Part shown: positions 3,825 through 60,533 of the stretch, one piece after another
How positions within the stretch are numbered: position 1 is the first letter of the stretch
How the letters are laid out: every line of letters starts with the position of its first letter
From: a plasmid
Sequence record: CP132319.1
DNA length: 64,000 bases
Reading direction: 5' to 3' (one strand)
Translations under genes and position numbers: made by a program
Notes under the pieces: model-generated
Seen by the model: the letters and a program-made list of their open reading frames with translations, nothing else
Told to the model about the DNA's origin: nothing
The model's database searches: none

Positions 3825-4565
3825 CTACTTGATAAGCATCCAGACCGCCATCGCGACCATCATCAGGTTTTCAGTTAATGAGATGAAGCCTAAGGGGACA
3901 TTGCTGTCGCCGCCGACGCAGGCGCATTTCAGTTCACGGCGCTCAATGTAGACGGCCTTCAACACCGAAACGGCACCGATAGTCCCGATCACCAACGCGA
4001 CCGGGATAGCCAGCCACAACAGAAAGCCGGCGATCATCAGGATCCCGGCAAGCGCTTCCCCGAATGGATAGAGGTAGGCATAGCGGACCCAGCGCTGGGC
4101 CAGCAGGTCGTAGCCGAGGAACATGTTGGAGAAGCTCTCGACGTCCCGAAGCTTCAGGATCGCAAGTATACACATGGAAATCGCGATAAACCATTCTAAG
4201 GCACGAGCGGTTAGAACGTCGCTAAACGCCGCCCAACTGGCTGCGAGGGCCATCAGCGCGGCCATGGCAAACACCGCGATCACCGGCTGATAGGTGACAG
4301 CCTTTGGATCGCGAACGGTTTTGCCGAAATGACGAAGCAGATCGTCGTAGCCGCCGACCCGCTGCCCATCGATGAATGTCTGGGGTGTTGTCTCAACCTC
4401 GTGCTCGGCCTTGAAGGAATCGGTCTCTTCGCGGGTTTTCAGCCAGTTGTCGTCAACAGAGAAACCCTCGCGTTTCAGCAGATCGAGGGACTTCAAGCCA
4501 AACGGACAGATGTGGTCGGGCATGACCATCCGATAGATCGTCGCTCTGCGCGAATGAGCATTCAT
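3825..4565 (-). CDS. glutaredoxin-domain protein fused to a MauE/DoxX-like membrane domain
   Basis: N-terminal CPFG glutaredoxin active site (MPDHICPFGLKSLDLLKREG), C-terminal 4-5 TM helices with a KCACVGG motif. Start taken at MNAHS, which has a GAGGTGA RBS. Confidence 0.65.
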   Translation of the reverse strand: MNAHSRRATIYRMVMPDHICPFGLKSLDLLKREGFSVDDNWLKTREETDSFKAEHEVETTPQTFIDGQRVGGYDDLLRHFGKTVRDPKAVTYQPVIAVFAMAALMALAASWAAFSDVLTARALEWFIAISMCILAILKLRDVESFSNMFLGYDLLAQRWVRYAYLYPFGEALAGILMIAGFLLWLAIPVALVIGTIGAVSVLKAVYIERRELKCACVGGDSNVPLGFISLTENLMMVAMAVWMLIK

Positions 4566-56281: not shown

Positions 56282-56460
56282 ATATCCAGAATATCGGATA
56301 TGTTTTCGATGTCAAGACGAATCCGGGCCTCGACGTCCGGCGGATAAAGGTCGAGAACGGCTGCTACGAGGTCTATGCGATCGATGCCAAGGGCGCCAAG
56401 GTCGAGACGATCTTCAATCCGCAGACCGGTGAACCGGTCGGCTCGGAAGGAGCGGAATGA
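56270..56460 (+). pseudogene. C-terminal remnant of a PepSY-domain gene (no start codon)
   Basis: 63-codon open frame after a TGA, reading ...IKVENGCYEVYAIDAKGAKVETIFNPQTGEPVG. It overlaps the arsR start region and ends in ATGA coupling to the cytochrome b561 gene. Confidence 0.4.
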
Positions 56461-57011
56461 TGGCGCCACTCTCCCGAACCAGCGGGGCGGGGGAAAGCGT
56501 CAAGGTGTGGGACCCGCTCGTGCGGGTCTTTCACTGGTCGCTTGTCTGCCTCTTCGTTTTTTCCTTCGTTACCGGCGACGAATGGAAGAAGGCTCATATC
56601 CTCTCCGGCTATGCCATCGCAGGGCTGATCGCCCTGCGCCTGGTCTGGGGGCTGCTCGGGCCGCATCACGCCCGCTTCGCCAACTTCCTCTATTCTCCTC
56701 CGACGATCCTAGCGTTCCTCCGTGACAGCCTCGCCTTCCGCGCCAAGCGGTATCTCGGCCACAATCCGGCGGGGGGCGCGATGGTCGTCCTGCTGCTCGT
56801 TGCGGTGTCCGGTATCGTGACCACCGGCTACATGATGACCACGGATGCCTATTGGGGTGTCGGCTGCGTGGAGGATACGCATAAGCTCCTGGTCTATTCG
56901 ACCATCGGGCTGATTGCCCTGCACATCGCCGGCGTCGTCTTCGCCAGCGTCGAGCACCGGGAAAACCTCGTGCGCGCCATGGTGACGGGAAGGAAGCGCC
57001 GCGAAGGTTGA
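56457..57011 (+). CDS. cytochrome b561 family membrane protein
   Basis: Four TM helices with conserved His (HWSLV, HILSGY). The usual partner of the upstream PepSY protein. Confidence 0.7.
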   Translation: MMAPLSRTSGAGESVKVWDPLVRVFHWSLVCLFVFSFVTGDEWKKAHILSGYAIAGLIALRLVWGLLGPHHARFANFLYSPPTILAFLRDSLAFRAKRYLGHNPAGGAMVVLLLVAVSGIVTTGYMMTTDAYWGVGCVEDTHKLLVYSTIGLIALHIAGVVFASVEHRENLVRAMVTGRKRREG

Positions 57012-57029
57012 TGTGCGGCTGTCTATATG

Positions 57030-57058
57030 GCATGTATTTAGAATTATTCTAAATACAT
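57030..57058 (+). promoter_or_regulatory. Irr-type iron control element (ICE box), perfect 29-bp palindrome
   Basis: CATGTATTTAGAAT-T-ATTCTAAATACATG. Its core TTTAGAA-N3-TTCTAAA equals the Rhizobiales ICE consensus. It lies 50 bp upstream of the VIT gene. Confidence 0.6.
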
Positions 57059-57108
57059 GCCTGACGTCATAATGCAACCACAGTAGATCTGCTGAAATCG
57101 GAGATGTT

Positions 57109-57804
57109 ATGCGCGCCGTTCACAAGGAAAGCCACCTCATCGAACGTATCGGCTGGCTCCGCGCGGCGGTGCTGGGCGCCAATGACGGGCTGATCTCGAC
57201 GTCGAGCCTCATCGTCGGTGTCGCGGCGGCGACCGCGGCATCGCAGGAAATCCTCGTCGCCGGTGTCGCCGGTTTGGTGGCCGGCGCGATGTCGATGGCG
57301 GCGGGGGAATATGTCTCCGTCAGCTCGCAAGCCGATACGGAACAGGCCGACATGGCGCGCGAGCGCCACGAGCTGGCCACCCAGCCGGAGGCGGAGCTGG
57401 CCGAGCTTACCGCGATCTACGAGCAGCGTGGCGTCTCACCGGATCTTGCCCGCCAGGTTGCCGAACAAATGATGGTGAAGGACGCCTTCGAAGCCCATGC
57501 ACGGGACGAACTCGGCCTGTCGAGCCACGTAATGGCGCGGCCTGTCCAGGCGGCGCTGACATCGGCGGTGACCTTCGCGACGGGCGCGGCCCTGCCGCTG
57601 GCGGTCGCCCTGCTGGCGCCGTCGGGAACGGTCGTCTGGGCTGTGTCCGTTGCCTGTCTCATCGGGCTTGCCGTCCTCGGCGCGATCGGCGCGCGTGCCG
57701 GTGGTGCTGGCATCTGGAAGCCGACCGTCCGGGTCGTCTTCTGGGGCGCGGTCGCCATGGCGTCGACCGCAGCCATCGGCGCGCTTGTCGGCCGGGCGGT
57801 CTGA
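57109..57804 (+). CDS. VIT1/CCC1-family Fe/Mn transporter (MbfA-like membrane domain without an erythrin domain)
   Basis: LGANDGLISTSSLIVGV, MAAGEYVSVSSQ and the C-terminal TM bundle. Confidence 0.8.
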   Translation: MRAVHKESHLIERIGWLRAAVLGANDGLISTSSLIVGVAAATAASQEILVAGVAGLVAGAMSMAAGEYVSVSSQADTEQADMARERHELATQPEAELAELTAIYEQRGVSPDLARQVAEQMMVKDAFEAHARDELGLSSHVMARPVQAALTSAVTFATGAALPLAVALLAPSGTVVWAVSVACLIGLAVLGAIGARAGGAGIWKPTVRVVFWGAVAMASTAAIGALVGRAV

Positions 57805-57806
57805 TC

Positions 57807-59786
57807 ATGAAACGCCTGTCGTTCGATACGCCCACGGTGATGTCGCTGCTGACGGTGCTGGGCATGGTCCTCGCCACGGCTGGAACCTGGCCGCCGGCCG
57901 AGGGGCTTGCCGTCCTGCGCTGGCCGGGGCTGGCGCTCGTCTATCTCGCCGGCGGACTGCCGGCGACGGGGAGCGCGCTTCTGGCCCTGTGGCGGCAGCA
58001 TGTCCTCGATATCGACCTCCTGATGGTGGTTGCCGCGGTTGCCGCGGCCGTCGTCGGAGCGCCGTTCGAAGGTGCGGTGCTACTGACGCTGTTCAGCGTG
58101 TCGAAAACGCTCGAGCATCAGGCGCTCGGCCGCGCGCGCCGCGCCGTCGAGGCGCTAATGGCGCTTCGTCCCGAAACGGCGTTCCGCAGGCAGGCCGATG
58201 GCTCGGTGCTGGAGGTTCCCGCAGCGGAGCTTGCCGTCGGGGATGTCGTGATCCTGCGGCCCGGCGCCCGCGTGCCGGCCGATGGCGTCATCCTGCTGGG
58301 ACGTGGTGGCATCGACGAGGCCAATATCACCGGCGAATCCATGCCCGTTTCCAAGGAGCCGGGCCAGCAGGTGTTCGAGGCCACCGTCAATCTGGACGGC
58401 ATTCTGGAGGTGGAGGTCGCAAGAACGATCGGCGATAGCACGATCGCCCGCATGATCCGGCTGGTCACGGAGGCCCAGGAGGCCAAGGCCCCCTCCGAGC
58501 GTTTCAGCGCCTGGTTCGGACAGCGTTATACCGTCGCGGTTCTCCTCGGCGCCGCTCTCGCCTTCGCCGTTTTCTATGGGGTCGGGCGCGATTGGGAGCA
58601 GGCGCTTTATCGGGCCGCGACGCTGCTGGTCGCCGCCAGCCCCTGCGCGATCGTCATATCGGTACCGGCGGCGATCCTGTCGGCGCTTTCGGCGGCCGCG
58701 CGCGGCGGCGTTCTGTTCAAGGGCGGCGGCGCGCTCGAAACGCTGGCCGCCGTCAATATCTTCGCCTTCGACAAGACCGGCACCCTCACCAACGGCCGGG
58801 CGGCCGTGACGCGGATCGTCGCGCTGGACGCGGACGAATGCGGCTTCCTGTCGTTGCTCGCCGGGCTCGAAGCCCATTCCGAGCATCATGTCGCGGCGGC
58901 CATCCGCCGGGAGGCGGCTGCACGTGGCATCGCGCCGGCGCATGTCGTGGATGTCAGCGCGCGCCCAAGCGCAGGGATCGTCGGGTCGGATGCGCTTGGT
59001 GTCCTCTGGGCCGGCAATCTTCATCTCGTTCGGGACATGGGGGCGTCGGTTGATCACGCCCGGCTTCGGGAACTGACCGACAGCGCCGAGACCGTCGTCT
59101 ATCTGGGACGAGGACCGGCTGTCCTCGGCGCCGTCGGAGTGGCGGACGAGGCGAGGGCGAGCTCGGCCCCGGCGCTCGCCGCGCTGCGGGCCGGCGGCGT
59201 GCGCCGCATCGTCATGATGACCGGAGACCGCCGGCCGGTGGCCCTGCGGATTGGCGGGCAGCTCGGCCTTGCTCCCGACGAGATCCACGCCGAAATGCTG
59301 CCGCAAGACAAGGTGCGCCATGTGGGGGACCTGGCGAGCGGCGGCACGGTGGCCTTCGTCGGCGACGGCGTCAATGACGCGGCCGCTCTTGCCCGCGCCG
59401 ATGTCGGCATCGCCATGGGCGCGGCCGGCTCGGATGTCGCCCTTCAGGCCGCCGATGTCGCCCTATTGTCGGAAGACATGAAGAAGCTGGCCGATGCGCA
59501 GCGTCTGGCACGACGGACCGCCGCGATCATCCGGCAGAACCTCGTCGTCGCGATCGGCGCCATGCTGGTGCTGGTAACGGGCGGGTTGTTCTTCGATCTG
59601 CCGCTGCCGCTGGCGGTGGTCGGACATGAAGGCGGGACCGTGCTCGTGGTCCTCAACGGCTTGCGGCTGTTGTCGGATCCGATCCGGCGGCCAGTGGACA
59701 GGGCCGCATCCGTCCGTGCGCTGGAGGACGGGTTGGCGACGTCGCCACCGGTTGCGGCCACGTCGCCGGCCGACACGCCGGTATAG
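57807..59786 (+). CDS. P1B-4 type heavy-metal ATPase (SPC motif, no N-terminal HMA domain; Co/Fe/Zn-type)
   Basis: SPCAIV, DKTGTLT, GDGVNDAAAL and HEGGT motifs. The N-terminus is short, as in CzcP/PfeT/CtpD-type pumps. Confidence 0.85.
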   Translation: MKRLSFDTPTVMSLLTVLGMVLATAGTWPPAEGLAVLRWPGLALVYLAGGLPATGSALLALWRQHVLDIDLLMVVAAVAAAVVGAPFEGAVLLTLFSVSKTLEHQALGRARRAVEALMALRPETAFRRQADGSVLEVPAAELAVGDVVILRPGARVPADGVILLGRGGIDEANITGESMPVSKEPGQQVFEATVNLDGILEVEVARTIGDSTIARMIRLVTEAQEAKAPSERFSAWFGQRYTVAVLLGAALAFAVFYGVGRDWEQALYRAATLLVAASPCAIVISVPAAILSALSAAARGGVLFKGGGALETLAAVNIFAFDKTGTLTNGRAAVTRIVALDADECGFLSLLAGLEAHSEHHVAAAIRREAAARGIAPAHVVDVSARPSAGIVGSDALGVLWAGNLHLVRDMGASVDHARLRELTDSAETVVYLGRGPAVLGAVGVADEARASSAPALAALRAGGVRRIVMMTGDRRPVALRIGGQLGLAPDEIHAEMLPQDKVRHVGDLASGGTVAFVGDGVNDAAALARADVGIAMGAAGSDVALQAADVALLSEDMKKLADAQRLARRTAAIIRQNLVVAIGAMLVLVTGGLFFDLPLPLAVVGHEGGTVLVVLNGLRLLSDPIRRPVDRAASVRALEDGLATSPPVAATSPADTPV

Positions 59787-59807
59787 GCGCCGGCCGCGTT
59801 CTGCGGA

Positions 59808-60533
59808 TCAACAGGACAGGAAGCGGGTGCGCGTGTTCTCTTCGAGAAGCAGACCCGTGATTCCGCCGAACACCCATTCCCGCAGGCGGCTGTGACCATA
59901 GGCGCCGGTGACGACGATATCGGCGTCGCTTTCGTCGACGAATTGCAGAAAGCCGATCGTTTCGTCGGCGCTTTTGATCATCTGCGGCCTGGCTTTTACA
60001 TTGTGCCGGGCGAGATAGGAAACGATATCGGCGAGGCTCTGCCTCTCGGCCGGTGCGGGCTCCGGGGAAACGGAAACGACGGCGACGTCATAGGCGACCG
60101 ATAGCAGGGGAATTGCATCGGCAATCGCGCGGCGGGCCTCACGGGTGTCCTTCCAGCCGATGACGATCTTTCTTGTCGCAATCGCGTCCCGGTCCCTCCC
60201 GACCACCAGCAGCGGCCGGCCGGCGCGCAGGACGATGGCCGCCGGGTCCGCGCGCTCTTCGGCCGCCATCAATACGAGATCGGCGATACGGGCGGCGGCC
60301 ACGACCGCCTCGGTCGGCGCCATTGTTTCGCCGCGCCATTCCGCCTCGATCCTGTTTGCCGCCAGATGGAGGAACGCGGCGCGGGCCTCCTCCATGCGCT
60401 CTGCGAGCGTTTCGGCGGCGCAAAGCCCGACGAGCCGCGCGCCCGAGCGGGATGCCAAATCGATGGCGGCCTCCGTTATCGGCTCGAACGGCCGGTCGAT
60501 ATCGAGATTGACGAGAATGGATCGATAAACCAC
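59808..60533 (-). CDS. tandem universal stress protein (UspA) domain protein
   Basis: Two USP units, ending in VVTGAYGHSRLREWVFGGIT. Confidence 0.75.
   Translation of the reverse strand: MVYRSILVNLDIDRPFEPITEAAIDLASRSGARLVGLCAAETLAERMEEARAAFLHLAANRIEAEWRGETMAPTEAVVAAARIADLVLMAAEERADPAAIVLRAGRPLLVVGRDRDAIATRKIVIGWKDTREARRAIADAIPLLSVAYDVAVVSVSPEPAPAERQSLADIVSYLARHNVKARPQMIKSADETIGFLQFVDESDADIVVTGAYGHSRLREWVFGGITGLLLEENTRTRFLSC

Follow-up and report, generated by a model that had tools for sequence, protein, structure and literature searches.

A predicted Irr operator upstream of a plasmid-borne VIT transporter and P1B-4 ATPase gene pair

Described systems closest to the locus

The closest described system is the Irr-ICE control of mbfA in Bradyrhizobium japonicum, Rhizobium leguminosarum, Agrobacterium tumefaciens, and Rhodobacter sphaeroides, which has the same operator consensus, regulator family, and VIT1 (PF01988) membrane domain as the locus described here (PMC1698941, PMC4902296, PMC3413700). 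The published ICE consensus is TTTAGAA-N3-TTCTAAA (PMC1698941). Irr directly represses mbfA, which encodes a VIT-domain iron exporter, at low iron (PMC1698941, PMC4902296, PMC7762939), and the logic proposed here is the same. In R. sphaeroides, the mbfA transcription start lies within the Irr box (PMC3413700). The present locus differs from the mbfA system in that its VIT protein has no N-terminal ferritin-like (erythrin) domain and is of the plant-like VIT1 type with a Glu-rich cytoplasmic domain. It also differs in that the VIT gene is coupled to a P1B-4 ATPase gene, and in that the pair lies on a plasmid and is mobile as one unit, whereas the regulator is chromosomal.

The P1B-4 ATPases are defined by an SPC motif in M4 and a HEGxT motif in M6 (PMC8880997). 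PfeT (Bacillus subtilis), FrvA (Listeria), CtpD (Mycobacterium), and PmtA (Streptococcus) are Fe(II)/Co(II) exporters of this subclass, with SPC and HEGxT and no classical metal-binding domain, like the ATPase described here, and the role expected of it is theirs, relief of iron intoxication. Export of Fe(II) by PfeT, FrvA, and CtpD is described in work cited by PMC7762939. Unlike the pair described here, these pumps are under Fur, PerR, or other regulators and have no VIT gene partner. The pump sCoaT of Sulfitobacter sp. NAS14-1 (PDB 7qbz/7qc0) aligns with the present ATPase at SPC, HEGxT, and the Gly-Gly kink of helix MB, but it was characterised in vitro with Zn/Cd/Co, and no link to Irr or iron is reported for it.

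Two further pumps are comparable in part. In Brucella melitensis, also of the Hyphomicrobiales, an Irr box lies upstream of the heavy-metal P-type ATPase gene zntA. Irr binds the zntA promoter, and zntA mRNA is lower in an irr mutant (PMC10374146), which suggests activation; this pump differs in being of the Zn/Cd type and in having no VIT partner. Nia (SMa1163) of Sinorhizobium meliloti is likewise a rhizobial P1B pump that is encoded on a plasmid and has been linked to iron export, but it is an Fe(II)/Ni(II) ATPase of another subclass (P1B-5), and its low-O2 regulation does not act through an ICE (bioRxiv 10.1101/2022.09.08.507232).

The palindrome and the two-gene locus

The sequence analysed, referred to here as the window, is a 64-kb stretch of a Shinella plasmid (sequence record CP132319.1). 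The features of the locus are listed in Table 1.

Table 1. Features of the VIT-ATPase locus and its upstream region (window coordinates).
Feature	Coordinates	Strand	Basis or remark
Cytochrome b561-family gene, directly upstream	56460..57011	+	PF01292, annotation
Candidate promoter: TTGATG (57008-57013), 17 nt, weak -10-like CATGTA (57031-57036)	57008..57036	+	Inferred, by eye
Perfect 33-bp palindrome (16+1+16)	57029..57061	.	Outer arms past the ICE core not kept in relatives
ICE (Irr box), predicted IrrA operator	57037..57053	.	Exact consensus match and conservation
GGAG ribosome-binding site, 5 nt 5' of the VIT ATG	57100..57103	+	Invariant among window-type relatives
VIT1/CCC1-family transporter, 231 aa, cytoplasmic metal-binding domain, without ferritin-like domain	57109..57804	+	PF01988, EgVIT1 alignment
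P1B-4-type heavy-metal P-type ATPase, 659 aa	57807..59786	+	Motifs, Pfam, sCoaT match

The 97-bp intergenic region just 5' of the VIT gene contains a perfect inverted repeat, GGCATGTATTTAGAAT-T-ATTCTAAATACATGCC. It is the only perfect palindrome in the 64 kb with arms of at least 10 bp, and 6e-5 palindromes with arms of at least 16 bp are expected by chance at the window composition of 61% GC. A first-pass annotation of this DNA had described it as a perfect palindrome of 29 bp; the perfection stands, but the 29 bp (57031-57059) are nested in the longer repeat. The exact ICE, TTTAGAA-TTA-TTCTAAA, lies inside the palindrome, as that annotation had also stated, and is the sole exact match in the window. 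When up to three mismatches are allowed, a single further match appears, at position 4210. The end of the ICE is 55 nt from the VIT ATG, close to the 50 bp first estimated, and the end of the palindrome is 47 nt from it. No RirA IRO box (TGA-N9-TCA) and no Fur- or Mur-type box was seen by eye in the intergenic region.

The VIT protein matches PF01988 over its full length with an E value of 2e-68 (residues 17-224 against profile positions 1-213 of 214) and aligns end to end with EgVIT1 (6iu3, E 2e-21). It has both the five-helix PF01988 domain and the cytoplasmic metal-binding domain by which membership in the family was judged. Using the EgVIT1 transport and metal-binding residues listed in PMC10794610, D26, M63, E85, E88, E96, E99, and E134 align with Asp43, Met80, Glu102, Glu105, Glu113, Glu116, and Glu153, respectively. 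EgVIT1 Glu72, a proposed proton/metal relay, is not matched; the VIT protein has Gly55 there and E67 at the position equivalent to Gly84. This is variation inside the VIT1/CCC1 family and does not exclude the protein from it. The plant VTL protein MtVTL8 has the same Gly/Glu pattern.

The Pfam search found no ferritin or rubrerythrin domain in the VIT protein. Identity with MbfA was considered and rejected, as the protein is 231 aa long, its VIT domain begins at residue 17, and it has no N-terminal ferritin-like/erythrin domain. Though not MbfA, it may work like MbfA.

The ATPase contains the motifs TGES (residue 175), SPC (278), DKTGT (322), GDGVNDA (519), and HEGGT (607), with a GG kink at residues 49-50. 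It matches PF00122 and PF00702, and TIGR01525 at 553 bits. The closest solved structure is sCoaT (7qbz, E 2e-105), with SPC and HEGGT aligned to the sCoaT motifs. The stretch before the GG-kinked MB helix is only approximately 44 residues long and contains one hydrophobic helix, and Pfam gave no match to an N-terminal HMA domain. The ATPase belongs to an alphaproteobacterial clade for which the next plasmid-borne relatives are down at approximately 44% identity. We know of no sequence rule by which P1B-4 pumps for Fe(II) can be told from those for Co/Zn.

The VIT gene ends in TGA, followed by two nucleotides (TC) and then the ATPase start codon. The two genes probably form a translationally coupled operon. 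Both protein identities given in the first-pass annotation, which had named a VIT-transporter/P1B-4 ATPase operon, are upheld, and the arrangement is operon-like. The cytochrome b561 gene is a conserved neighbour at window-type loci and is the same neighbour at loci L092-L096; transcription may read through from it into the operon. Over the operon region, the sequence has 100% identity with a Shinella sumterensis plasmid, and the plasmid around the operon carries arsenic/copper/cation resistance.

A consensus promoter scan returned no strong sigma-70-like promoter on the + strand and only a candidate on the minus strand. Of the elements picked by hand, TTGATG is unchanged across four window-type sequences and the candidate -10, CATGTA, adjoins the ICE; CTATAT at 57023-57028 is an alternative -10. 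Because these + strand candidates are weak, any argument from ICE-promoter geometry is inferential.

Conservation of the ICE among relatives

The ICE, with at most two mismatches and at most 300 bp upstream of VIT, is present at 33 of the 34 loci at which a VIT gene lies directly upstream of an orthologous ATPase gene. The ICE-bearing loci comprise 32 distinct site-plus-flank sequences. No match was found in the 362,923 bp of locus sequence outside those upstream regions, and 732 kb of VIT-homologue loci contain one unrelated match only. The upstream DNA of the window, pShin-05, Ensifer, and Pannonibacter lineages cannot be aligned apart from the block TTAGAAT-N-ATTCTAA. Conservation is limited to the 17-bp core, with invariant ICE half-sites and with flanks that differ in all other loci. 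Judged from these comparisons, the outer arms of the palindrome are private to the plasmid lineage of the window. Conservation at orthologues, on which the first-pass annotation had made its reading depend, is therefore strong and specific to the site.

The ICE is also carried by VIT-only relatives in Shinella and Bosea, and it lies directly 5' of the ATPase gene in three diverged ATPase-only lineages (L136, L143, and L148/L156). Two other ATPase-only loci (L115 and L155) are VIT-deletion derivatives and were left out as independent evidence. The ICE is associated with the VIT gene, which has it also where no ATPase gene is present, no less than with the pair.

ATPase orthologues of Paracoccus, Qingshengfaniella, and Rhizobium sp. 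Khangiran2 have no ICE. The same is true of the Paenochrobactrum pair and of close VIT homologues of Bradyrhizobium, Afipia, R. mesoamericanum, and Mesorhizobium. Irr control would therefore be lineage-specific and not inherent in either protein family. A GTDB genome scan with the VIT protein gave mostly distant homologues (57-89% identity) with neither ICE nor ATPase; this set served as background, and the orthologues came from plasmid and metagenome searches. In Brucella oryzae and Ochrobactrum, an ATPase with a TPCP motif follows the VIT gene, without an ICE.

The VIT-ATPase pair is found repeatedly, on many replicons of Shinella, Agrobacterium, Ensifer, and Pannonibacter as well as on metagenome contigs. 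The combination had been called not commonly described. It is indeed unreported, in that no prior description of an Irr-controlled VIT/P1B-4 operon was found in the literature searched, but the pairing itself is widespread and not rare.

No Irr homologue is encoded in the 64-kb window. Shinella sp. PSBB067, of the same genus, has a copy of the ICE-VIT-ATPase arrangement and encodes IrrA (NF045678, 231.6 bits against a cut-off of 150) with the HHH haem motif.

Proposed regulation and alternative readings

The reading that we favour, with a probability of roughly two in three, is that the ICE is an Irr operator, that Irr represses the VIT/P1B-4 operon at low iron and releases it in a haem-dependent manner, and that the products export Fe(II). 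The palindrome would be the operator for the chromosomally encoded, haem-sensing, Fur-family Irr, of the IrrA type in Rhizobiaceae. At low iron, apo-Irr would occupy the ICE, at or beside the promoter, and block transcription. As iron, and hence haem, rises, haem-bound IrrA would lose its affinity for DNA and the operon would be derepressed. The VIT1/CCC1-type divalent-metal/H+ antiporter and the ATP-driven P1B-4 pump would then clear the cytoplasm of surplus Fe(II), and perhaps also of Co(II) or Mn(II). Since P1B-4 pumps often export Co/Zn/Cd (PMC8880997) and the operon has a resistance-plasmid setting, iron is not the sole candidate substrate.

The same two facts also fit a true Irr site that acts positively. 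Irr would then activate the operon under iron limitation, and the pumps would expel competing Co, Zn, or Mn that mis-metallate iron enzymes. Irr activates or represses according to the position of the ICE (PMC1698941, PMC7762939), and the zntA P-type ATPase promoter of Brucella, where Irr binds and mRNA falls in the irr mutant (PMC10374146), points in this direction. Several observations speak for repression instead. VIT1/CCC1 proteins exchange Fe(II) for H+, and MbfA, the one VIT-domain protein known to be under Irr control, is repressed. In matching the consensus perfectly, the ICE is like the high-affinity sites of bfr and mbfA, both of which are repressed (PMC4902296). By eye, the box adjoins or overlaps the best -10/-35 candidates in several lineages, and at loci with two boxes these flank a conserved TTGAC, an arrangement that is repressor-like. 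Activation is accordingly considered unlikely.

A palindrome with no Irr function, bound instead by another protein or acting as an RNA hairpin to end or stabilise the cytochrome b561 transcript, is less probable still. The repeat begins 17 nt past the cytochrome b561 stop codon and as RNA would form a 15-bp hairpin (MFE -23.9 kcal/mol for a 74-nt stretch, z = -4.0). An intrinsic terminator of cytochrome b561 was nevertheless rejected: the hairpin is stable, but no U-run follows it, the terminator scan made no call there, and the outer stem is unconserved even in the closest relatives, in which the ICE half-sites are invariant. A riboswitch or another known RNA in the leader was likewise rejected, as an Rfam scan of 56300-57900 gave sub-threshold hairpin matches only. 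The same box also occurs where the gene 5' of it is an unrelated one (PepSY, ABC ATPase, histidine kinase, a 126-aa gene, and Blh), and no regulator gene is common to those ICE-bearing loci that were examined with gene annotation. A chance match has a negligible probability: the intergenic region is 39% GC against 61% for the window, which raises the local odds of AT-rich motifs, but only 1.9e-5 exact sites are expected per window at its base composition, and the occurrence at 33 of 34 orthologous loci against none in 363 kb refutes this reading in practice.

If repression by Irr is correct, the Irr regulon would gain a second class of iron exporter, a ferritin-less VIT with a P1B-4 ATPase. 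It would also be a first regulatory hint that an alphaproteobacterial P1B-4 clade handles iron and not cobalt or zinc. A horizontally mobile resistance cassette would be wired to a chromosomal, lineage-restricted regulator, and its proper control would be confined to some hosts. No current view is overturned, as Irr repression of iron export at low iron is already established for mbfA. The regulatory logic is known from Irr-mbfA, and the locus is very probably a previously undescribed plasmid-borne module for metal export under iron control. The locus also offers a perfectly palindromic predicted operator of the high-affinity type for Irr binding studies.

A further, rather speculative proposal, to which we attach little weight, is that the VIT protein is a functional partner of the HMBD-less P1B-4 pump, not a redundant second exporter, and that ICE-VIT-ATPase is a self-contained mobile iron-efflux cassette that works only in hosts supplying Irr. 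For example, Fe(II) might be bound by the Glu-rich cytoplasmic domain of a VIT dimer and then passed to the pump; we know of no chaperone for this pump. Alternatively, the two could act as tiers, one low-affinity and proton-driven and the other high-affinity and ATP-driven.

Pumps of this ATPase clade are now annotated as 'cadmium/cation-translocating ATPase', a label on which the present finding bears.

VIT-ATPase operon and its leader

Over the 3.5 kb around the operon, the window matches the 119-kb plasmid unnamed6 of Shinella sumterensis 1760953 at 100% identity. To the left of this region the identity is about 96%, and the window therefore represents unnamed6 or a close relative.

The first gene of the operon encodes a full-length PF01988 protein (E = 2e-68); its residues 17-224 cover profile positions 1-213 of 214. 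Over its entire length it can be aligned (E = 2e-21) with EgVIT1 (6iu3), a plant Fe(II)/H+ antiporter of known crystal structure. The EgVIT1 residues compared are those listed in PMC10794610, and the numbering offset was fixed using Arg35 and Asp43. The pathway residues Asp43 and Met80 are conserved as D26 and M63, and the metal-binding-domain Glu 102, 105, 113, 116, and 153 as E85, E88, E96, E99, and E134. Glu72 is replaced by Gly55, and E67 occupies the position equivalent to Gly84, the same pattern as in the plant VTL protein MtVTL8. The protein was ruled out as MbfA, the membrane-bound ferritin, because it has no ferritin-like domain.

The ATPase gene begins two bases after the VIT TGA, where the first-pass annotation had given 3 bp. 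Its product contains the motifs TGES (175), SPC (278), DKTGT (322), and HEGGT (607), and no HMA domain was found in it. The best solved relative is sCoaT (7qbz, E = 2e-105), with which the SPC, the HEGxT, and the Gly-Gly kink of helix MB align. Subclass P1B-4 is defined by SPC and HEGxT without a classical metal-binding domain (PMC8880997), and by its motifs and domain content the window ATPase is classed as P1B-4.

An inverted-repeat search and a reading of positions 56600-60200 identified the palindrome GGCATGTATTTAGAAT-T-ATTCTAAATACATGCC, with 16-nucleotide arms and one central T. It had been annotated as a perfect palindrome of 29 bp; it is perfect, and its length is 33 bp, four bases more. 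The sequence TTTAGAA-TTA-TTCTAAA within it agrees at every specified position, as also annotated, with the iron control element (ICE) consensus 5'-TTTAGAA-N3-TTCTAAA-3' of Rodionov et al. 2006 (PMC1698941), the predicted operator of Irr. The ICE ends 55 nucleotides before the VIT ATG, close to the earlier estimate of about 50 bp. No second exact match exists in the 64-kb window, which has one additional ICE-like site at up to three mismatches and no other perfect palindrome with arms of at least 10 nucleotides. The number of exact ICEs expected per window from its composition (61% GC) is 1.9e-5, and that of perfect palindromes whose arms reach at least 16 nucleotides is 6e-5. No Rfam family was found in the leader.

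Features of the window and of comparison loci (L-numbers; coordinates run within each locus)
Feature	Position	Description
Cytochrome b561 gene	56460-57011	
Palindrome	57029-57061	perfect
ICE	57037-57053	within palindrome
Small palindrome TGACGTCA, leader	57061-57068	kept in Teo12, not in Shinella VIT-only loci
Imperfect palindrome around AGATCT, leader	57081-57094	10-nt overlapping arms, 90% complementary
VIT1/CCC1 ORF, 231 codons	57109-57804 (+)	PF01988
P1B-type ATPase ORF, 659 codons	57807-59786 (+)	PF00122 + PF00702; TIGR01525, 553 bits
Universal-stress-protein gene	59808-60533	convergent
Second, pShin-05-type VIT-ATPase pair of the S. sumterensis strain	NZ_CP132305.1 77572-80150	type also L003, L004 4001-6678
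VIT-deletion derivatives	L115 535-615; L155 2365-2500; L157 and L164 2316-2501	
Stretch before ICE box 1, Pannonibacter-type	L098 3084-3236	about 145 nt
Homologous junction and ATPase 5' end	L086 2946-3092	Khangiran2/Paracoccus type
VIT and TPCP-type ATPase, Brucella oryzae and Ochrobactrum sp.	L018 4001-6650; L022 4001-6651	no ICE
VIT, Bradyrhizobium japonicum in8p8	L005 3352-4696	no ICE, no ATPase
VIT and ATPase, Paracoccus aminophilus pAMI8	L090 1919-5275	no ICE

Distribution of the ICE among related loci

In S. zoogloeoides Teo12, TTTAGAATAGTTCTAAA lies at the same place as the window ICE, and the outer arms are not palindromic. A pShin-05-type VIT-ATPase pair is found on Shinella plasmids, on Agrobacterium pusense plasmids, and, in the S. 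sumterensis strain, on another plasmid besides unnamed6. It shares about 80% DNA identity with the window pair, and its upstream DNA cannot be aligned. In the upstream DNA that was read (pShin-05 and an A. pusense plasmid), GTTAGAATAATTCTAAA is present 98 nucleotides upstream. Ensifer adhaerens NER9 has the box ATTAGAATAATTCTAAA. Shinella VIT genes without the ATPase have the exact box (on contigs encoding close VIT homologues), and Bosea has a VIT gene without the ATPase and with two boxes. Pannonibacter and one Hyphomicrobiales genome have both genes and two boxes 49 bp apart. When upstream regions from four diverged loci were aligned, a single block, TTAGAAT-N-ATTCTAA, was conserved.

A metagenome scan using the ATPase added 66 loci on contigs without taxonomy. 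Loci were pooled when they had an orthologous ATPase (at least 60% identity) whose N-terminus was included together with 250 bp or more of the DNA upstream, and the ICE was scored as present at up to two mismatches within 300 bp upstream. Absence of the element upstream of orthologues had been named as evidence against Irr control; where VIT lies directly upstream of the ATPase, the ICE is present at 33 of 34 loci, the exception being Paenochrobactrum. Among ATPase-only loci it is present at six and absent from 16. Two of these six (L115 and L155) are VIT-deletion derivatives, and the other four represent three diverged lineages (L136, L143, and L148/L156) in which the box adjoins the ATPase gene and is preceded by unrelated genes. 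Outside the 300-bp upstream stretches, the pooled loci gave no match in 362,923 bp, and one unrelated match occurs in 732 kb around more distant VIT homologues.

The 49 ICE sites comprise 32 distinct sequences when flanks are counted. Because the outer arms of the window palindrome recur at none of them, the functional unit is predicted to be the 17-bp ICE core. By this comparison, the 33-bp perfection is private to the window's plasmid lineage.

The ATPase orthologues of Paracoccus, Qingshengfaniella, and Rhizobium sp. Khangiran2 have no ICE, nor do close VIT homologues (85-89% identity) of Bradyrhizobium, Afipia, R. mesoamericanum, and Mesorhizobium. The predicted Irr control is lineage-specific. 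The VIT protein of B. japonicum in8p8 is 89% identical to that of the window, and upstream of its gene is one for a rubrerythrin/ferritin-like protein with a signal peptide.

Predicted control by Irr

ICE boxes are bound by apo-Irr, whose DNA affinity is reduced in Rhizobiaceae by haem at the HxH motif, and at low iron Irr represses the iron storage and export genes bfr and mbfA (PMC7762939, PMC4902296). The R. sphaeroides mbfA start site falls within the box (PMC3413700). Irr affinity at the B. japonicum bfr and mbfA promoters is far above that at other targets, which is why these genes are derepressed at high iron only (PMC4902296). By analogy, the consensus-perfect window box would be a high-affinity Irr operator that keeps the operon silent as long as iron is not in excess. 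After derepression, Fe(II) would be exported by the VIT antiporter and the ATP-driven pump.

This Irr control is supported by the sequence comparisons, and the operon is predicted, with good support, to be a further member of the Irr regulon. Its nearest known counterpart is Irr-ICE-mbfA, with which it shares the site, the predicted regulator, and the VIT membrane domain; in contrast, the window VIT has no ferritin domain, stands ahead of a P1B-4 pump, and belongs to a plasmid-borne module. The P1B-4 Fe(II) exporters of Firmicutes and mycobacteria are under Fur or PerR. No description of an Irr-controlled VIT/P1B-4 operon was found in the full-text literature searched, and Rodionov et al. (PMC1698941) name no ATPase among the Irr regulon members, the word "ATPase" having 0 occurrences in their paper. 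The operon points to iron as the predicted substrate of this alphaproteobacterial P1B-4 clade.

A B. japonicum Irr sequence, used as a tblastn probe only, matched an ORF of 151 codons on the 4.6-Mb replicon of Shinella sp. PSBB067. With 231.6 bits this ORF exceeds the cut-off of 150 for the NCBIfam IrrA equivalog, and it contains the HHH haem motif; the replicon also has a pShin-05-type pair. The 64-kb window contains no Irr homologue. No regulator gene is common to the ICE-bearing loci with gene annotation, as would be expected if a global regulator acts on them in trans.

The best -10-like hexamer lies flush against the left side of the box in several lineages, and two-box loci have a conserved TTGAC immediately after box 1. 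In the window, TTGATG-N17-CATGTA abuts the box as a weak match, and a consensus scan found no plus-strand promoter. This geometry is suggestive. Transcription may also enter from the cytochrome b561 gene, with Irr as a putative roadblock.

Activation of the operon by Irr at low iron, with expulsion of Co, Zn, or Mn, is plausible because P1B-4 pumps often handle these metals. The operon sits on a resistance plasmid. In Brucella, the zntA promoter is bound by Irr, and an irr mutant has less zntA mRNA (PMC10374146). However, the VIT partner and the mbfA precedent speak against activation, which is considered unlikely. As RNA the palindrome forms a stable hairpin. A terminator or a site for another protein is nevertheless very improbable, since the hairpin lacks a U-run, the outer part of its stem shows no conservation, and the box recurs in unrelated contexts. 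A chance match is excluded by the 33 of 34 VIT-ATPase loci with the ICE against none in the 362,923 bp.

Plasmid setting and mobility of the module

The operon neighbourhood is a resistance island. The cytochrome b561 gene directly adjoins the operon upstream, with ars operons beyond, and the universal-stress-protein gene downstream is followed by sulfite-related genes. Other plasmid genes encode copper oxidases, a copper ATPase, a cation-diffusion transporter, and a type IV secretion system (T4SS).

A plasmid labelled Roseateles sp. XES5 (NZ_CP084755.1) is 99.9% identical over the operon region and 96.6% over about 20 kb of T4SS/ars backbone. As this record is assigned to a betaproteobacterium, either the host is mislabelled or the plasmid has been transferred across classes. 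Betaproteobacteria are not known to encode Irr; if they lack it, the operon would be unregulated in a Roseateles-type host. Identical pShin-05-type proteins adjoin IS6 and IS110 transposases on plasmids of several Shinella strains and A. pusense.

Recurrent neighbours of VIT and VIT-ATPase loci (L092-L096, L098-L100, and L104-L105) are PepSY or PepSY_2 proteins and a PhoQ-like kinase, with an OmpR-type regulator also present in the Shinella loci. VIT is preceded by cytochrome b561 in Shinella loci and by a MacB-type ABC exporter in Pannonibacter-type loci. The window retains the cytochrome b561 gene only, the others apparently having been cut off by the ars operon.

In Pannonibacter-type loci (L098), the stretch that separates ICE box 1 from the gene for a 126-aa membrane protein shows homology to the junction and 5' end of the ATPase gene of L086, which has no ICE (local alignment score 96 vs. 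a shuffle maximum of 27). From this, ICE, VIT, and ATPase seem to have replaced a resident pump as a single unit in these loci. In the VIT-deletion derivatives, the first 25-48 VIT codons are fused to the ATPase region and the ICE is kept; the pump therefore stays under the box after VIT loss. The ATPase is full-length in L115 and L155, and its match starts only at residue 88 in L157 and L164.

In B. oryzae and Ochrobactrum sp., VIT (67% identity) is followed by a P1B-5-like ATPase with a TPCP motif and 33% identity to the window pump; VIT and P1B-pump pairing therefore arose more than once. On pAMI8, VIT (57% identity) and the ATPase (66% identity) are divergently transcribed, and a universal-stress-protein gene overlaps the ATPase 3' end in the same direction.
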